From the IMG/VR virus record IMGVR_UViG_2897346870_000006: a stretch of DNA of 41,822 nt; one strand, written 5' to 3'. Positions within the stretch are counted from its first letter, which is position 1. Each line of letters starts with the position of its first letter. Of the stretch, positions 1-8,251 are shown piece after piece. Both the position numbers and the translations under genes were made by a program. A model generated the notes under the pieces. The model was not told the DNA's origin. It did not search any database and saw only the letters and a program-made list of their open reading frames with translations. The DNA is from a virus (lineage: Duplodnaviria; Heunggongvirae; Uroviricota; Caudoviricetes).

Positions 1-294
1 TTAACGGATCAACATCCAGATCAGCAGACACGCCACCACCGGCACAGCAAAATCCATCAGGCTTGCCACATCCCACACGCGCGGATCAAAACCGCCCCAC
101 CACGGCATGTTAATCCTCTTGCCATGCCCAAACATTTCAATCCAGCGATATTCTGCCTGGGTGTGTTCACGCGCAATGAAGAACGTACAACCGGCTATCG
201 CCCCGTAAGCCCAGTTCCCGGTAAAAAGACCAATCAGTAGCTGCGCAGCCACAGCACAAAGCGCATGAAGGAAAGGTGTTATATCCATTTTCAT
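1..294 (-). CDS. Hypothetical small inner-membrane protein (about 95-98 aa)
   Basis: Hydrophobic segments (LHALCAVAAQLLIGLF, FAVPVVACLLIWMLI); the ORF track starts at an apparent TTG at 303, but ATG codons at 294 and 288 are preceded by GGGTAGG. Stop codon at window positions 1-3. Confidence 0.45.
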   Translation of the reverse strand: MKMDITPFLHALCAVAAQLLIGLFTGNWAYGAIAGCTFFIAREHTQAEYRWIEMFGHGKRINMPWWGGFDPRVWDVASLMDFAVPVVACLLIWMLIR

Positions 295-303
295 CCTACC
301 CAA

Positions 304-324
304 TAAAACGGGGCGCTCGGCCCC
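304..324 (-). terminator. Putative intrinsic terminator downstream of the tail fibre gene
   Basis: Hairpin GGGGC-gctcg-GCCCC (310-324) followed on the minus strand by TTTTATT. Confidence 0.4.
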
Positions 325-330
325 TTGATA

Positions 331-1371
331 TTATTTAGACGCAAGCGCCGCCTCAATTGCAGATAATCTTTGTCTTAATTCTGCGTTTTCTTCTTCCAGT
401 GCTGTTATTCTGTCGTCTGACTCTCTGGCTACCTGAACAAGCAAGCCAGTAACACCAGAATAATCTACTGTGTAATAACGTTCACCTTCTTCACCTTCCG
501 ATCCGCTTGCACCGTCCTGATATTTCATTGCGGAACCTACAACTTCTGGGATTGCTTCCAGAGCTTCCTGTGCAATGACACCAGCATAGGGCATACCGTT
601 TTCTTTAAGCGTGTATGTATAGCCGTTCATTTTACGGATGCGGTCGGTTGCATTATCGATCACCTGAATGTTGTCTTTCAGATCCCGGTCGGAATGCTGG
701 TTAAATGCGGTGGCATGACATGCACCATTAACGCTTAACATATAGGTGTTATCGGTATTTTTCTGCGCATAGAACATATAAGCGCCACCATCAGCACCAA
801 CTTCATATACAACCGGACGGGTAGAGTTACCCCACAAACTAGTAGTAGCGCCAGAATGAGCGGTTCCCTGTGTGTTGATTGTCATGGTTGACCCATGATT
901 GGCATATTTGATTTGTAATGTGTCTGTGCAGTCAAACTTAATAAGCGCGTTACTTCCCCGCACACCATACGACATGAGACAGTTCCCCATCTTAAGGTAA
1001 CCATCACTGCCTGGAAAAATTAATGTTCCACCGTAAAGATCGCTAAAATCCCAAAAGATACCTTTTGTTCCATTGTGTGTGACAATCCTTGTCATTGTAT
1101 CTTTTGTACCGTCAATATTTTTTCTAGTGTACATCTCACTATAAGCGTTTTCGGTTTCTCCTGTCTTATTTGACAAGTGAATCTTACCGCTAAATATAGT
1201 TCCAGTGGTCGGCAATGTCTTTTGATCATAGATTACATTGCAATAACTATTCCATGTTGTTTTATTGTCTACATATGATTTTGTTGCGTAGCTTCCTTGA
1301 TCGTTTTTTAATTTGCTAACGTCGGATTTTAGCGTTTTGATGTCTTCAGGAATTACTGTCGATGTAGCCAT
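331..1371 (-). CDS. Tail fibre/tailspike-like protein with C-terminal intramolecular chaperone (peptidase S74-like) domain
   Basis: 346-aa ORF; C-terminal SDRDLKDNI ... YAGVIAQEALEAIPEVV ... YTVDYSGVTGLLVQVARE ... ITALEEENAELRQRL resembles the auto-cleaving chaperone domain of endosialidase-type fibres; GAGGAA ribosome-binding site upstream. Confidence 0.6.
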   Translation of the reverse strand: MATSTVIPEDIKTLKSDVSKLKNDQGSYATKSYVDNKTTWNSYCNVIYDQKTLPTTGTIFSGKIHLSNKTGETENAYSEMYTRKNIDGTKDTMTRIVTHNGTKGIFWDFSDLYGGTLIFPGSDGYLKMGNCLMSYGVRGSNALIKFDCTDTLQIKYANHGSTMTINTQGTAHSGATTSLWGNSTRPVVYEVGADGGAYMFYAQKNTDNTYMLSVNGACHATAFNQHSDRDLKDNIQVIDNATDRIRKMNGYTYTLKENGMPYAGVIAQEALEAIPEVVGSAMKYQDGASGSEGEEGERYYTVDYSGVTGLLVQVARESDDRITALEEENAELRQRLSAIEAALASK

Positions 1372-1380
1372 TTTTCTTCC

Positions 1381-1662
1381 TCACATCCAGCCACGAAGTT
1401 GATGCTCAACAGCAACCACGTATTCATCGAATATTGACGATTTTTTTGCATCATTAATGATGCGCACGTTTACAAAATATCCGTCTTCCTTAACACATAC
1501 CGGCTCGCCATCTTCGGTAAGTTCTCCGGTTTCTTTGTACACGTTACCTATCACGTCAATAAGAATATCATCCTGCATCGACTCGTCATCATAATAGCCG
1601 GCACTCTCCATAAAGGCCGAAAAGTCGGCCCTGTCGGCAAATTTGAGTGTTAAATCTTTCAT
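1381..1662 (-). CDS. Hypothetical acidic protein (93 aa), tail-fibre associated by position
   Basis: Start codon overlaps the stf stop (TAATG coupling); no family recognised. Confidence 0.45.
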   Translation of the reverse strand: MKDLTLKFADRADFSAFMESAGYYDDESMQDDILIDVIGNVYKETGELTEDGEPVCVKEDGYFVNVRIINDAKKSSIFDEYVVAVEHQLRGWM

Positions 1663-4046
1663 TAGATTGACTCCCCCACCTGAGCATCAGTCAATGCCTT
1701 GTGCCATATTCTGAAATTCCTGACATGACCAAATAAATGACGCAACCCGGCTGTAGTCTGGCCTCCAATACGGATAATTGCGGTGTTCTGAATATAGGAC
1801 CATGTGGCTTTCTTTTCGCTGGATATACGCCCGTTACTTACTGAGCACGTAGACTGCTCTGACTTTACACGCATCCCCATAACCATTTTTTCAAGCGATG
1901 CGTTTTCGTTTACCCGTCTGTTAGCCAAACCTATATCGCAATAAGGAAATCCGTCGTAATCTGTTGAACGACCGAAGCCAAGAATAATAGCCGCTCCGGT
2001 TTGATGACCGCCGGTATCAAAAACACGCGGTGCTGCATTTGGCGTTTTATACCAGTTCTTATGTACCTCACAAAGAACTGTAAAAGGAAGATTATAAAGG
2101 TTATTCTTGATTGGGACTGTCACCATATCGCTTGCGCGAGTGCTTGCAATTATATCAGTTACAATAAATGACGAAGCACTTGATCCACCTTCCACTTGTG
2201 GAGTTGCGATATCCAGATAGTCTCCAGATGCTGTGCCTGAACCTTTTACTGGAGCATATTGAACCATCGCACCAATCATGCTCTCTGTATCTAGTGCATT
2301 AATTGTAGCCTGATAGAAAATCCAACCAGTAGCCTCATCTTTTACAGCCTTTGCAATAATACGATTTGCTGCACCACCAGTCTTATCAATTACAAGTGTT
2401 GATAAATTGAGGTAAGCATCTCCCAAAAAAGTGTAAGTAGAACCATCATGATGTTCAAATCTTAAACGACACCTTATATTTTCAACATCACTTCTGACAC
2501 GGCATGAAATGGTCACATATTTTTCATCACCTGTGACATCAAATCCTTTACTGCCAGAAACCGTTACGATATTAATCGCACTTGTCTGATCAATAAGAGT
2601 ATCTTTTACAGTAAATCTCCCATAAGTAAAATTAAAAGAATCCGTGGATATTTCTGTGAGTTCCAGATTGCCTGACTTATTCCATTTAGATGGATTTGTT
2701 GAATTAAGCAGAAGATTAGTTCTTTGCCCCTCAATAAGCAGGCCATCACGTTCAAATCGCGGCTCGTCAATGGCAGCCTCTGTCAGTACACCAGATTTAT
2801 TAATATAGGTTGCTTTCGATGCGCGTTTAAACTTAACAACCTTGTCACCAGGCATCGTTATTTCGTCGTCGCCAATAACAATCTTTTTATATGATGGCGA
2901 AAAGCCCGTAATCATATCCAGTGAATCGTTAAACGGTATCCACACATCGGGAAGCGGCTGCAAAACTTGTTTATACGGCTCCGCAGCCTGGCTTGCATAC
3001 TCTCTGGCTGCGTCTTCACTTGCTTTTGCAGCCGTCTGGCTTGCAGCGGATGCTTTCGCCGAGTTAGCCGCCGCAGTCTCGCTCGCCTTTGCGTTGGTTT
3101 CACTGGTTTTTGCAGCTTTTTGACTGTTGGCTGATGCAGTGGCAGAAGAAGCCGCCGCACTTGCAGAACCAGCTGCGGCACTCTCGCTTTGGGCTGCAGC
3201 ATCCTGACTGTTTTTCGCCGCAGTTTCACTGGCTTTGGCATTCGTTTCGCTGGTCTTCGCTGCCGTCTGGCTGGACTTTGCGTTAGTTTCACTCGTCTTC
3301 GCAGCTTTCTGGCTGTTAGCCGCAGCAGTTGCTGATCCAGCTGCTGAAGTCGCAGAACCAGCTGCCGCGCTCTCGCTTTGGGCTGCTGCAACCTGGCTGT
3401 TTTTTGCCGCAGTTTCACTGGCTTTGGCATTCGTTTCGCTGGTCTTCGCTGCCGTCTGGCTGGACTTTGCGTTGGTTTCGCTCGTCTTTGCGGCTGTCTC
3501 GCTGTTTTTCGCGTTGGTTTCTGATTTTTTGGCTGCTGTCGCGGAGTTTGCCGATGCAGTCTGTGAGGTCGCTGCCGCCTGTGCGCTGTTAGCTGCATTC
3601 GTTTCTGAGGTTTTCGCCGCGTTCTTCGATGATGCCGCTGCAGTTTCGGATTTCTTTGCCGCCGCTGCGCTCTGAGAGGCGGCTTCGGCGTTGCGTGCCG
3701 CTTCTTCCACCATTTCCTCAAAACGGCGCAATGCCTCCGGCATGACATCATCTTCCGTCATGGCACCGAGAAAATCATTCAGCGTACCTGGTCTGGAACC
3801 TTCATAGACGGTAATGGTCCCGGCATGTGAAGGCGGAAAACCTTCAACCAGCAGGGTGACGCTGTACTGGCCATACTCAACATCCATGCTGTAACGTCCG
3901 GCTTCATCCGGATTTTCAGAAGCCACCGTGTTCACCAGTACCGTGGTGCTGTTACGCTTTGCCTTCAGTTGAATAGTGCAGTTCTGTATTGGTTTTCCCG
4001 CACCATCTTTCAGCACACCTGAGATTTTTACTGCTGCCATATCCAC
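1662..4046 (-). CDS. stf: Side tail fibre protein (Stf-like), 794 aa
   Basis: N-terminus AVKISGVLKDGAGKPIQNCTIQLKAKRNSTT ... EAGRYSMDVEYGQYSV ... FPPSHAGTITVYE matches lambda Stf; long Ala/Ser/Thr-rich repetitive shaft and a divergent C-terminal domain. Confidence 0.85.
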   Translation of the reverse strand: MDMAAVKISGVLKDGAGKPIQNCTIQLKAKRNSTTVLVNTVASENPDEAGRYSMDVEYGQYSVTLLVEGFPPSHAGTITVYEGSRPGTLNDFLGAMTEDDVMPEALRRFEEMVEEAARNAEAASQSAAAAKKSETAAASSKNAAKTSETNAANSAQAAATSQTASANSATAAKKSETNAKNSETAAKTSETNAKSSQTAAKTSETNAKASETAAKNSQVAAAQSESAAAGSATSAAGSATAAANSQKAAKTSETNAKSSQTAAKTSETNAKASETAAKNSQDAAAQSESAAAGSASAAASSATASANSQKAAKTSETNAKASETAAANSAKASAASQTAAKASEDAAREYASQAAEPYKQVLQPLPDVWIPFNDSLDMITGFSPSYKKIVIGDDEITMPGDKVVKFKRASKATYINKSGVLTEAAIDEPRFERDGLLIEGQRTNLLLNSTNPSKWNKSGNLELTEISTDSFNFTYGRFTVKDTLIDQTSAINIVTVSGSKGFDVTGDEKYVTISCRVRSDVENIRCRLRFEHHDGSTYTFLGDAYLNLSTLVIDKTGGAANRIIAKAVKDEATGWIFYQATINALDTESMIGAMVQYAPVKGSGTASGDYLDIATPQVEGGSSASSFIVTDIIASTRASDMVTVPIKNNLYNLPFTVLCEVHKNWYKTPNAAPRVFDTGGHQTGAAIILGFGRSTDYDGFPYCDIGLANRRVNENASLEKMVMGMRVKSEQSTCSVSNGRISSEKKATWSYIQNTAIIRIGGQTTAGLRHLFGHVRNFRIWHKALTDAQVGESI
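3119..3490. repeat. Tandem duplication of about 186 bp (62 codons) inside the stf shaft
   Basis: Near-identical DNA blocks, e.g. ctcgctttgggctgc...gcagtttcactggctttggcattcgtttcgctggtcttcgctgccgtctggctggactttgcgtt occurs at about 3182-3285 and 3370-3472; the protein repeats NSQKAAKTSETNAKSSQTAAKTSETNAKASETAAKNSQ. Confidence 0.75.
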
Positions 4047-4104: not shown

Positions 4105-4704
4105 TCAGAATTTATAACCGACACCCACGATGAAACCGTCAGTGCGCCAGTCACCACTGCCGGAGCCTTCATAAGCAATATCAATGGCCACGGATTCGGT
4201 CGGGTTAAACTGCACGCCAGCCCCCCACGCCAGAGACGTGTTGCTGTGGCGACCGTCATCACTTCCGGTCAGCACATCGTGCGTTTTCCCCTTGCTGTCA
4301 GTTACGCGGAGATAATCCCCGGAAAAAGTCGAAACACGGCTGTAAGCCACACCTGCCATCGCATAAGCACTGAACCATTCATTCACGCGTACAGATGGCC
4401 CCGCCATCATGCTGAACCAGCGGTTACGCACGGAATCTTCATGCCAGCGGGTATCGCTGTAATGCGTTTTTTGCTCATCTTTGGCATTGGCATAACTGAA
4501 TGACGTCACCAGCCCCAGCGTGTCCGTAAATTCATAACGGTATTTCACGTTAATGCCCTTCAGGTCATCACTGCCTGGCATATCAGTATGGGTCTGAAGA
4601 TACCCGGCGCTTAGTGTGGACTGATGCTCTGCTGCGCTCGCTGGCGTACCAGCGGCGACCAGCCAGACTACTGTGGACAGAATAACAGCACATAATTTAC
4701 GCAT
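4105..4704 (-). CDS. lom: Outer-membrane protein Lom (Ail/Lom family)
   Basis: 199 aa, N-terminal signal peptide MRKLCAVILSTVVWLVAAGTPASA, beta-barrel-like composition ending GYKF; located directly after J as in lambda. Confidence 0.9.
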   Translation of the reverse strand: MRKLCAVILSTVVWLVAAGTPASAAEHQSTLSAGYLQTHTDMPGSDDLKGINVKYRYEFTDTLGLVTSFSYANAKDEQKTHYSDTRWHEDSVRNRWFSMMAGPSVRVNEWFSAYAMAGVAYSRVSTFSGDYLRVTDSKGKTHDVLTGSDDGRHSNTSLAWGAGVQFNPTESVAIDIAYEGSGSGDWRTDGFIVGVGYKF

Positions 4705-4771: not shown

Positions 4772-7700
4772 TCAGCTAATCGTGATGCCTGCAGTGGCTT
4801 TCTTCATCACAACAACCAGCAAATCGCTGATACTTGCTGTGGGATACCAGCCATTTACCAGCCATGCTGACACCGAAAACTCCAGTGTCATGTGACCGTG
4901 ACCGGCAGGCATATCAATAACGCCACTGTAAATCAGCGTATTATCCAGCGCGGTACGGTTATAAATTTCAGCACCGTTTTTCCGCACTATCAGACGGCAT
5001 GAGGAGTAAATATCAGTATGCTCTCTCTCATGCTTAGCGCCACTGAATGCCACCGCCGGAATAACAATCTGCCGGTCAAACGGCTGATCGTCATAAATCC
5101 TGACGGTAATGGTCCCTGATGGCCACCGTTCCGGTGCACGGGAGTCCCGGGGGAAAGCTTTGCCCACTGTTTTAACGAGATCGCCCTCAATCTGGTTCGC
5201 GGACAGTTTTCCCAGAACCCGGCAGTTCTCGTTAATCGTGACGTTGTTGAGCGTCCCGGAGTTCGCATTCACGTTACCGCTGATATCGGCATTTTTCGCC
5301 GTCAGCCGCCCGTCCGGTGTCAGGGAAAATGCCGGAGGATTACCGCCGCTGGTAATGGTGGGAGCCGTCAGATATTTCAGGAACACTTCGTTCATGAATA
5401 TCTGATCGCCCTGACCAACAAACATCGGCTTTGTGTTGCCATTCGCAGGATTAACCATCGCAATCCTGTCCGCCGCCAGCAGCACCTGACTCTGCATGCC
5501 GTCAGGGGTGTTCTCAATACCGGCACCAATACCCGCGATATAAAGGCGTCCGTCCTGCATCTGCTGCAGCTTCACAGCCCACATGCTGTTCAGGTTATTA
5601 TTTGTATCAACCTGAACCTTCTGTATCTGCTGAATTGCCGCACTCTGGTCTTCCAGTTTCTTATTGACGGTCTGTGTGATTTCATTGCTGACATCCGTAA
5701 TGGATGTCCTGATTTCAGCCAGGTCAGGCGCAAGCTGACCGTTATCAATCTGCGTCCACAGCTCCTGAGCCAGATGGGTTTTCCCTATCTCGCCTTTGAA
5801 AAAATCCAGATAGCCGGATGCGTCATCACTCGGCTGACCAACAGCCTCCACGAATGCCGATTTGCCAACGGTGTTCACACTGCGAACGTAAAAATAATAA
5901 TTATGGCCCGGCCTGATATTGATACTGGCGGCTATCCAGTACAGCGCCGTGCCAAGATAGCGTGCTGTGGTTTCAACCTGCCTGATATCCGCAATCCGCT
6001 TTTCCGAGAACCAGAACTCAAACTGTACCGTCGGATCATAAACCGCAAGATGCGGCGTGGCGGTTATCTGAAAATAGCCCGGCGTCAGCTCAATCCGCGA
6101 CGGCGCTGCCGGTGCGGCAATCCGGAACGATACCGACGCCGGATCGCCCTGCTGTCCCCACGCATTTACCGCCCGGACTGTCAGCCTGTAGTTTCCCAGC
6201 GCCAGCTGCGTGAAGCGGTATGTGGTTTCCGTCGTCCTGGCCGTGCTGACCAGCCGCTCACTGCCGTCATCCGCTGTCACGGTCAGACGGAGCAGGAAGC
6301 TCACGCCCTTCACCACCTTCGGTGTGTCCCAGCGCGCCAGAACCTGATATTCCCCGCTGTCTGCGGTGACTTCGGCGGTCAGGTGCTGCACCGCTGGCGG
6401 CGTGACACCATTCACCGTGCCGCTCTGGTCGCCGTCAAAGTGCGCCCCGTTATCCACGATGGCCTCTTTTTCCGGTACATGCTGCACGGCGGTGATGGCA
6501 TACGTACCGTCATCGTTCTCACGGATACTCACACAGCGGAACAGGCGCTGGCGCAGCGTCGGCAGCTTCAGCCCCCACACGCTGTATTCGGCAACGCCGT
6601 CAGGAACACGGCTCACTTTCACCTTCACGCCGTCGGTGACGGACTGGACCTCCACGCTGACCGGATTGCCATTTCCGTCAACCAGGCTTATCAGCGTGGT
6701 TCCGGAGGATGGCAGCATGATTTCACGGTCGAGCGTCAGTGTCCGGGTCTGGCTGTTTACCGCAAGCACGCGCCCGCCGACGCTGATACCCGCATAGTCA
6801 TCATCGCAGATTTCAATGACATCGCCCGGTACATGGCGAAGCCCTTCTGCGCCCACGCTGAAGTCCACAGTCTGCGTTTCCAGCAGCTCCGTTTTAATCA
6901 GCCACAGCCCGGCGCGGTGTGCCTGCCCCCGGCTGGTACAGCCAAAGGCATCCATCTTCGTGACGTTACGACCGTAACGGGCAATGGCCTGCGTGTCCTC
7001 CACAAGCTCTGTTGCCGTCTCCCAGCCGTTGTCCGGGTCAATCCAGTTCACCTCAACGGCATTATGGCGGTCCTTCAGGGCGCTGAAGCTGTAGCGGAAC
7101 GGCGCGTCATCATCCGGCATCACCACATTACTGCGGTTATAGGTCCACACCTTATCCGACGGTCGGTCCTGCACGAACGTCAGCGTCTGCCCGTTCCATA
7201 CCGGCATACAGCGCATCGCCGAGCAGAAATCACTGAGCACATCCCACGCCTTTCGCTGTGTGGTCAGGTAGGCATTACAGGTGATGCGCGGCTCCGTGCC
7301 GCCAAAACCGTCCGGCACCGACTGGTCGCAATACTGGCCGATGACATACAGCGCCCATTTGTCCACATCCGCCGCACCAAGACGTTTCCCCATGCCGTAG
7401 CGCGGATGGGTCAGCATATCCCACAGACACCATGCCATATTATTGCTGTATGCCGGTTTAAACGTCCCGTCCCAGATACCGCTGTATTGCCGCGTCTGCG
7501 GGTTATAATTCGACGGCACCTGCAGAATACGCCCGCGCAGATGATAATTACGGCTCACCTGCTGGCTGCCGAACTGCTCCGAGTCCACCTGCACGCCGAC
7601 CAGTGCCGTGTTCGGGTAGCACTGTTTCACATCGATGATTTCAGTGTATGACGACCAGAGCGTTTTGTTCTGCAGCTGGTCTGTGGTGCTGTCCGGCGTC

Positions 7701-8251
7701 ATCCTGCGCATCCGGATGTTGAACGGGCGCGGCGGCAGGTTACCCACCACCACCGAGGCCAGATACTGCGAGGTGGTTTTGCCCTTAATGGTGATGTCTT
7801 TTTCCGTCACCCAGCCACCGTTACGTTGTATCTGAACCAGCAGGCGGACTTCCGACGGATTCCTGTCACCCTTTGAGGTGGTTTCCACCAGTGCCTGTAC
7901 ACCGAAGGTAAAGCGCAGACGGTCGATGTTTGCCGACGTAATGGTGCGGGTGATCGGCGTGTCATATTTCACTTCCGTACCCAGCACCGTCTCGGAGCCG
8001 GAGGATTCAAATCCCTCCGGCGGTGACTGCTCCTGCTCACCTGCCCGGAACACCACCGTGACGCCGGATATATTGGTATTCCCCTCACTGTCCAGCACCG
8101 GCGTACTGTTCAGCAGCACGCTTTTTAATCCATCCACCGGACCTTCAATCGGCCCTTCGCTGATGGCATCAATCACACTCAGCAGCTGCGTGGATTTCAG
8201 GTTGTCCTTCGCTTCGCGCGGGGTATGCCCCTTACTGCTGCCTTTACCCAT
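4772..8251 (-). CDS. J: Tail tip host-specificity protein J (central fibre)
   Basis: 1159-aa ORF in the lambda J position, N-terminus [26 protein letters not shown]. Confidence 0.95.

Follow-up and report, generated by a model that had tools for sequence, protein, structure and literature searches.

We describe here a short tail-fibre gene in the virus record IMGVR_UViG_2897346870_000006 (IMG/VR; Caudoviricetes), a stretch of DNA of 41,822 nucleotides (nt) that is called the window below. Numbering is that of the whole window, and all features of the fibre locus lie on the minus strand. Three consecutive minus-strand open reading frames (ORFs) make up the locus: stf, which encodes a 794-residue proximal side tail fibre (1662..4046; Pfam phage_tail_N and PHROG 1419), a gene for a 93-residue protein (1381..1662; PHROG 1361), and a gene for a 346-residue protein with a precursor of 37.9 kDa (331..1371, with the stop codon at 331-333 included), the putative distal tail-fibre subunit. 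They come after J (4772-8251, upstream of lom) and lom (4105-4704, the upstream neighbour of stf), which gives the order J, lom, stf-like gene, 93-residue gene, and 346-residue gene. The stop codon of stf and the start codon of the 93-residue gene share 1 nt (TAATG), an overlap that suggests translational coupling, and the spacer between the stop of the 93-residue gene and the ATG of the 346-residue gene is 9 nt long and contains GGAAG. A sequence-only reading of this DNA had reported the 93-residue gene and the 346-residue protein after stf, in place of a lambda-type tfa gene. Both statements were borne out: the two ORFs lie behind stf as described, and the 93-residue, 346-residue, and 100-residue products matched no tail-fibre-assembly (Tfa-type) family in Pfam, PHROGs, or NCBIfam.

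Domain content of the fibre proteins

The 346-residue protein matched PHROG 4563, 'tail fiber protein', from its first to its last residue (E 3e-208), and such a match places the ORF far beyond a chance reading frame. The C-terminal 200-260 residues (85-342) matched PHROGs of long T5-like fibres. The tblastn comparison resulted in about 45-53% identity over residues ~146-343 with fibre genes of T5-like, rV5-like, and other coliphages, and the T5-like phages were about 50% identical over residues 146-337.

The sequence-only reading had also placed an endosialidase-type self-cleaving chaperone at the end of the protein, with a Peptidase_S74 hidden Markov model search as the check. The search with Pfam PF13884 (Peptidase_S74) was positive, with 52.5 bits (E 6.2e-14) against a gathering cutoff of 22 bits, and residues 227-278 were aligned to profile positions 1-57 of 58. 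The two motifs quoted in that reading are present, S227-D-R-D-L-K232 and G264-V-I-A-Q-E-A270. The first provides the S-x4-K pair at the start of the intramolecular chaperone (IMC), which covers residues 227-346 (334..693, minus strand; 13.2 kDa); the Ser227 codon is at 691-693 and the Lys232 codon at 676-678. Both residues are nearly invariant, each being at least 90% conserved among 26 homologues, and we take them to be the catalytic dyad, as in endoNF and T5 pb1. Characterised IMC proteins such as these two cut before the serine. By analogy, a cut between His226 and Ser227 is predicted, which would leave a mature chain of residues 1-226 (24.8 kDa) and release the domain of 13.2 kDa.

A profile built from the 26 homologues was compared with the PDB. 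As a result, the IMC of phage S16 gp37 (6f45) was matched with an E value of 5.3e-8, with SDRDLK aligned to SDRRIK of gp37. The same profile matched residues 174-227 to the proximal-fibre repeat of T4 gp34 (E 3.8e-7), the only significant match to a solved structure in that region. The part between the N-terminus and the IMC, residues 28-226 (694..1290, minus strand), is a beta-rich mature body and the proposed receptor-binding part; it is most variable at residues 28-140, and residues ~174-226 form the conserved gp34-like knob repeat. In the AlphaFold2 monomer, an N-terminal helix (residues 9-25) precedes the beta-rich body, whose strands at residues 45-135 and 170-215 were modelled with a predicted local distance difference test score (pLDDT) of 70-87, and a long helix (residues 304-344) closes the chain. 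Neither a phage_tail_N collar nor any other recognisable anchor domain was found in the 346-residue protein with Pfam, PHROGs, and NCBIfam. We also considered the protein as a chaperone that acts in trans on Stf and replaces Tfa, and this was rejected on two grounds: an S74 domain acts in cis, on the chain to which it belongs, and the full fibre-like body differs from allele to allele.

Stf matched Pfam phage_tail_N (E 7e-67) and PHROG 1419 over its full length. Its collar or anchor domain comprises residues 5-134 (3645..4034, minus strand), of which residues 5-97 matched the Stf collar domain of Ur-lambda (PDB 9e7m) with an E value of 8.2e-49. In the cryo-electron microscopy structure of Ur-lambda, Stf residues 1-94 form a 12-copy collar ring that anchors four trimeric side fibres (PMC12617516). 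The C-terminal module of Stf, residues 365-794 (1665..2954, minus strand), holds a GTA_spike_fiber-like domain followed by a weak concanavalin/LamG-like end, and it travels together with the gene of about 90 residues downstream. NCBIfam NF048003 (GTA_spike_fiber) was matched at residues 437-638 with 57.9 bits against a cutoff of 36, and Laminin_G_3 was matched below the threshold (E 0.003-0.008); together, these family matches agree with a lectin-like end of Stf. The C-terminus of Stf is 64% identical over 424 residues to IrisVonRoten gp22, 76% identical to ESCO3, 48% to the rV5-like EmilHeitz, and 52% to phage 21, the ends of the module being conserved and the centre variable. We propose this module as the carrier of the distal subunit, and it is possibly a second glycan-binding site. 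Long antisense or out-of-frame ORFs (up to 279 residues) occur on both strands at 2842-3751, over the Ala-rich SETNAK/SQTAAK repeats of stf (residues ~115-350); the composition of the repeats gives rise to them, and they are not genes.

The N-terminal motif and the small gene before it

The first 16 codons of the 346-residue gene (1324..1371, minus strand) encode the conserved motif MATSTVIPEDIKTLKS, a proposed docking peptide that leads into the predicted short helix or coiled coil of residues 9-25. Its consensus is M-[AV]-T-x-T-x-I-P-x-D-I-x-x-L-K, and M1, T3, T5, I7, P8, D10, I11, L14, and K15 are invariant in the distal genes of lambdoid, T1-like, Dhillonvirus, 9g-like, and T5-like phages. 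In lateral fibres of the IrisVonRoten type, a distal gene with this start is expected 9-12 nt behind the small gene, and the locus of the window agrees with that. The IrisVonRoten protein gp24 (574 residues) begins with MVTKTVIPTDITKLK, gp15 of the T1-like phage tuinn with MATVTVIPSDITKLK, gp30 of the Dhillonvirus KarlBarth with MVTKTNIPADITALK, and the distal protein of the Nonagvirus JenP1 with MVTKTIIPTDITTLK. The motif is the start of proteins with unrelated bodies, and past residue 27 most of those that bear it are only about 20% identical to the 346-residue protein of the window. The DNA over the motif is only 56-67% identical, and synonymous changes affect 3-9 of its 16 codons. When all six frames of the window are translated, the motif occurs once. 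An exhaustive homologue search with the first 40 residues yielded 19 matches, which were close relatives and coiled-coil noise, the query being too short for the size of the database. For KarlBarth gp30, no IMC motif was seen on inspection of the sequence, and no Pfam scan of it was made.

JenP1 combines a fibre body 93% identical to that of the window with the other N-terminal subtype, and a natural recombination joint therefore lies directly after the motif. The distal genes of the lytic phages KarlBarth and tuinn are annotated in two pieces, gp30/gp31 with an 8-nt overlap in the former (L142:3770-4649) and tuinn_15/14 with a gap in the latter (L141:3792-4529); the split could stem from a frameshift, from an error in sequencing, or from a programmed event.

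For the locus survey, 146 related loci were collected. A motif-bearing gene follows the small gene at all 81 scorable loci with a small gene of the window type and at 7 of 7 scorable loci of the IrisVonRoten, tuinn, KarlBarth, and JenP1 subtypes, and at none of the 48 scorable phage-21-type loci or the two rV5-like loci. The same three-gene set was found in the Nonagvirus phages ESCO3 and JenP1, the T5-like IrisVonRoten, the T1-like tuinn, and the Dhillonvirus KarlBarth; in ESCO3 the whole cassette is present at about 90% DNA identity. The motif was found only behind the pair formed by the Stf C-terminal module and the gene of about 90 residues. In phage 21 (L004) and at L089-L138, stf is followed by an intact, conserved 92-residue homologue of the small protein (54% identical) and then directly by a small membrane protein. 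When loci with and without a distal gene were compared over the C-terminal 430 residues of Stf, only the last 10 residues differed; they were rejected as a marker of the distal gene, as they follow the subtype of the adjacent small gene, which linkage explains, and the T5-type tail resembles the phage-21 type despite its distal gene.

The lack of a collar in the 346-residue protein, together with the restriction of the motif to loci with the Stf module and the small gene, agrees with a subunit that Stf carries distally or as a branch. We consider it probable that the side tail fibre is composite and that the protein serves as its distal, receptor-binding subunit, not as a separate second fibre. 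The sequence-only reading had suggested an additional or alternative receptor-binding fibre; from that suggestion we retain the fibre protein with its IMC, whereas the separate 'second' fibre does not agree with the missing collar and with the genomic position of the motif.

In favour of an independent fibre, which would attach itself elsewhere on the tail tip or tube, parallel to Stf, the protein is encoded separately, behind a ribosome-binding site of its own, and brings its own folding domain. It is common for phages to have two receptor-binding proteins that are independent of each other, and weak density in DT57C suggests a possible contact between the second fibre protein and the tail tip. 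However, the 346-residue protein has no collar or recognisable anchor, and its sole conserved element outside the IMC is the motif of about 16 residues, which stands behind the Stf module and small gene at every locus examined. Moreover, the motif is kept across lambda-like, T1-like, 9g-like, and T5-like tail tips that are otherwise unrelated, and conservation across such groups would not be expected of an anchor site on the tail body. We therefore regard the independent fibre as improbable.

The distal subunit carried by Stf leaves a role to be assigned to the 93-residue protein. It matched PHROG 1361, whose function is unassigned, with an E value of 1.6e-46, and it had no match in Pfam or NCBIfam. 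In 181 phage records, which represent at least six phage groups, a homologue comes immediately after a fibre gene. The homologue search with the 93-residue protein retrieved solely unnamed proteins of 87-114 residues and zero fusions, and the search with the T5-type small protein retrieved 24 matches, all unnamed. The AlphaFold2 model of the 93-residue protein has a pLDDT of 82; it had no informative fold match and no fibre-chaperone neighbour in the PDB. Phage-21-type prophages and rV5-like phages retain the small gene and the Stf C-terminal module without the distal gene, so the core role of the small protein must concern the Stf module itself. Positions 2 (A/V) and 4 (S/K/V) of the motif may co-vary with the small-protein subtype, the subtypes being few. 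Within the composite fibre, it is conceivable, at somewhat less than even chances, that the 93-residue protein is a physical adaptor that caps the Stf module and forms a socket for the distal N-terminal peptide, a three-component variant of the arrangement proposed above. At L144:3719-3988, a further, strongly divergent small protein of 89 residues, with about 31% identity to that of the window, precedes a 346-residue fibre that is 88% identical and has an MVTKT variant of the N-terminus.

Allele exchange and the proposed composite fibre

Among 25 distinct alleles of the 346-residue protein, the mean pairwise identity was 0.98 at residues 1-27 and 227-280, and 0.72-0.75 at residues 28-100, with a minimum of 0.30. 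The variation is concentrated in residues 28-140, and the N-terminus and the IMC are constant. In about half of the related prophages (L013-L016, L019-L027, and others; for example L015:6292-6996), a 234-residue allele replaces the 346-residue gene. This allele shares the motif, its S74 domain is at residues 116-172, and its mature part of only about 115 residues is mostly coiled coil. Stf C-terminal variants that are 38-100% identical to that of the window combine freely with either distal allele: a 38% variant with the 346-residue allele at L085, a 44% variant with the 346-residue allele at L063, and a 97% variant with the 234-residue allele at L061. The variation at residues 28-140, the free reassortment of Stf and distal alleles, and the presence of the cassette in unrelated phage groups support the swapped host-range module that had been proposed for this locus.

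The 346-residue gene had a match in 711 of 5,426 complete Escherichia coli genomes (about 13%), and in 248 genomes the match covered at least 80% of the gene. At least 15 of the complete E. coli genomes listed contain a coding sequence 100% identical to it, annotated as 'tail fiber domain-containing protein'. These data bear on the view that the gene encodes no working virion component and is either cargo or a remnant in decay, placed where a defective prophage ends. The gene does lie near the prophage end, and some relatives are disrupted, by an IS3-family element in SMS-3-5, by a transposase and a beta-lactamase gene at L146, and by truncation to alleles of 90-227 residues at a few loci. Yet the gene is intact and, as the genome counts show, widely kept; intact homologues occur in the plaque-forming lytic phages ESCO3, JenP1, and IrisVonRoten; the catalytic and motif residues are kept despite synonymous divergence; and elsewhere in the window the lambda-like tail and head arm is complete. 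A remnant is thus very improbable.

Two of the disrupted loci show further features. In SMS-3-5 (L001:10441-11669), the IS3-family element lies between stf and the 93-residue gene and truncates the C-terminus of stf, and the 346-residue gene is 100% identical to that of the window. At L146:667-3092, a DDE transposase and the beta-lactamase gene replace the stf region upstream of an 89-residue small gene, which amounts to the insertion of a resistance gene inside a prophage fibre locus.

The composite side fibre, with the 346-residue protein as its distal subunit, could work as follows. Stf would sit on the tail by its N-terminal collar, extend through the Ala-rich coiled coil, and end in the lectin-like module of about 430 residues. 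Stf, the 93-residue protein, and the 346-residue protein would be co-expressed from the late operon on the same late transcript. The 346-residue chains would trimerise, nucleated by their own IMC (residues 227-346), which would then excise itself before Ser227 by means of the Ser227/Lys232 dyad and leave the mature chain of 24.8 kDa. The mature trimer would plug into the distal end of Stf by the N-terminal peptide (MATSTVIPxDIxTLK) and the short coiled coil, either directly on Stf or through the 93-residue protein. The variable beta-rich body (residues 28-226) would bind a strain-variable surface structure, most likely the O-antigen or another glycan, and through this binding a primary, reversible step of adsorption would precede the engagement of the terminal receptor by J. 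In this sequence of steps, we infer trimerisation, cleavage, docking on Stf, and the class of receptor. The sequence analyses show the gene with its domains and catalytic motif, the order and coupling of the genes, the conserved N-terminal motif, the way in which alleles vary, and the sharing of the cassette by several phage groups.

Several points weigh against the composite fibre. Most of the loci surveyed come from E. coli prophages that are close relatives of one another; their counts are therefore not independent, and the cases across phage families carry the weight. Attachment to Stf is suggested by comparative genomics and by the prediction that was published for a homologous locus. Neither the C-terminal 430 residues of Stf nor the small protein contain residues that follow the presence of the distal gene beyond linkage. 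The AlphaFold2 monomer of the 346-residue protein is poor, with an overall pLDDT of 61 and values below 50 in the IMC region, and Foldseek with this model against the PDB retrieved nothing at E<=0.001; both results are expected of an intertwined trimer, and the model was therefore not used for fold assignment. Furthermore, the solved T5 pb1 tip (residues 970-1263) was absent from the results of the sequence and profile searches of the PDB, and the direct sequence searches of the PDB likewise did not recover endoNF. The designation 'T5-like tip' accordingly reflects PHROG and tblastn similarity only and is a tentative one.

A broader hypothesis is that one universal plug-and-socket joint, common to lambda-like, T1-like, Dhillonvirus, 9g-like, and T5-like siphoviruses, is built from the motif peptide, the PHROG 1361 protein, and the Stf C-terminal module. 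In it, the PHROG 1361 protein would be a structural connector of a new type between one fibre and the next. We consider this rather unlikely. If it were true, any distal receptor-binding protein that bears the peptide could be mounted on any such phage, and the joint would be a natural and portable interface for host-range swapping.

On the narrower proposal of a distal subunit carried by Stf, many lambdoid E. coli prophages would have a two- or three-protein composite side fibre instead of the textbook Stf/Tfa, and the outer part of the fibre would be a small exchangeable cassette. The N-terminal peptide is a likely splice point for host-range engineering, and JenP1 shows natural exchange exactly there. 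Such a splice point would be useful for lambda-based delivery particles and for sequence-based prediction of prophage host range.

Directly 3' of the distal fibre gene lies an intrinsic-terminator-like hairpin (GGGGCCGAGCGCCCC and GTTTTATT; 310..324, minus strand), which was assigned by a consensus match only. In E. coli SMS-3-5, the same prophage terminates just past these fibre genes. Beyond the hairpin, the window encodes a predicted membrane protein of about 95 residues that begins with MDITPFLHALCAVAAQ (1-288, minus strand; listed as ORF 1-303) and belongs to PHROG 1443, with function unassigned; in the annotation of phage 21, this protein has two transmembrane domains. Its gene is the last of the prophage arm in nearly all related loci, with or without a distal fibre gene, and the position is moron-like.

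Comparison with known systems

IMC-bearing fibres, lateral fibres made of several proteins, and this very architecture in other coliphages are already known, so the locus introduces no new principle; in the literature searched, the composite-fibre architecture was not found described for lambdoid prophages. The BASEL papers describe the lateral fibres of T5-like phages and small siphoviruses as one polypeptide or as two or more proteins.

The closest comparison is IrisVonRoten (Bas32), for which an AlphaFold-Multimer model attaches gp24 to the proximal gp22 (Humolli et al.; bioRxiv 10.1101/2024.09.12.612763 / PMC11990801). The C-terminus of gp22 has a galectin-like domain, the phage infects K-12 with restored O16 O-antigen, and the authors suggest that the lateral fibres bind that glycan (bioRxiv 10.1101/2024.09.12.612763). 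Its proximal gp22, 92-residue gp23, and distal gp24 have the same order and spacing as the three genes of the window. The small protein (bas32_0023) is 37% identical to the 93-residue protein and is in the same position, and gp24 has the same N-terminal motif and a Peptidase_S74 end. However, the proximal fibre of the window is anchored by a lambda-type collar, whereas that of IrisVonRoten is anchored by the T5 LtfA/LtfC system. The distal protein of the window is also shorter (346 against 574 residues), its middle region is only about 20% identical, and it does not have the gp12-like first receptor-binding domain, for which reason one head would be expected rather than the T-shape of IrisVonRoten.

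Compared with Stf and Tfa of Ur-lambda (PMC12617516; PDB 9e7m), the Stf of the window shares the collar domain, the coiled-coil shaft, and the position after J and lom. The lambda fibre is a single chain with a gp37-like tip folded by a separate Tfa. In the window, in contrast, a lectin-like module stands in place of the tip region, and behind it come the gene of about 90 residues and a separate IMC-bearing subunit.

In DT57C and DT571/2, LtfA and LtfB form a branched lateral tail fibre: the first protein carries the second, and the two bind O-antigens and widen the host range (PMC4728585, PMC10713586). No gene of about 90 residues was described for these phages, and the attachment site is structurally unresolved (PMC4728585, PMC10713586). 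By analogy, the LtfA/LtfB pair can be seen as a functional counterpart of the putative fibre pair of the window.

With the IMC family (K1F endoNF, T5 pb1, and S16 gp37), the 346-residue protein shares the PF13884 match, the Ser-x4-Lys pair, the C-terminal position, and the long terminal helix. It differs from these in that the IMC follows a very short mature fibre of 226 residues without an enzymatic domain, and in that its cleavage is predicted from the sequence.
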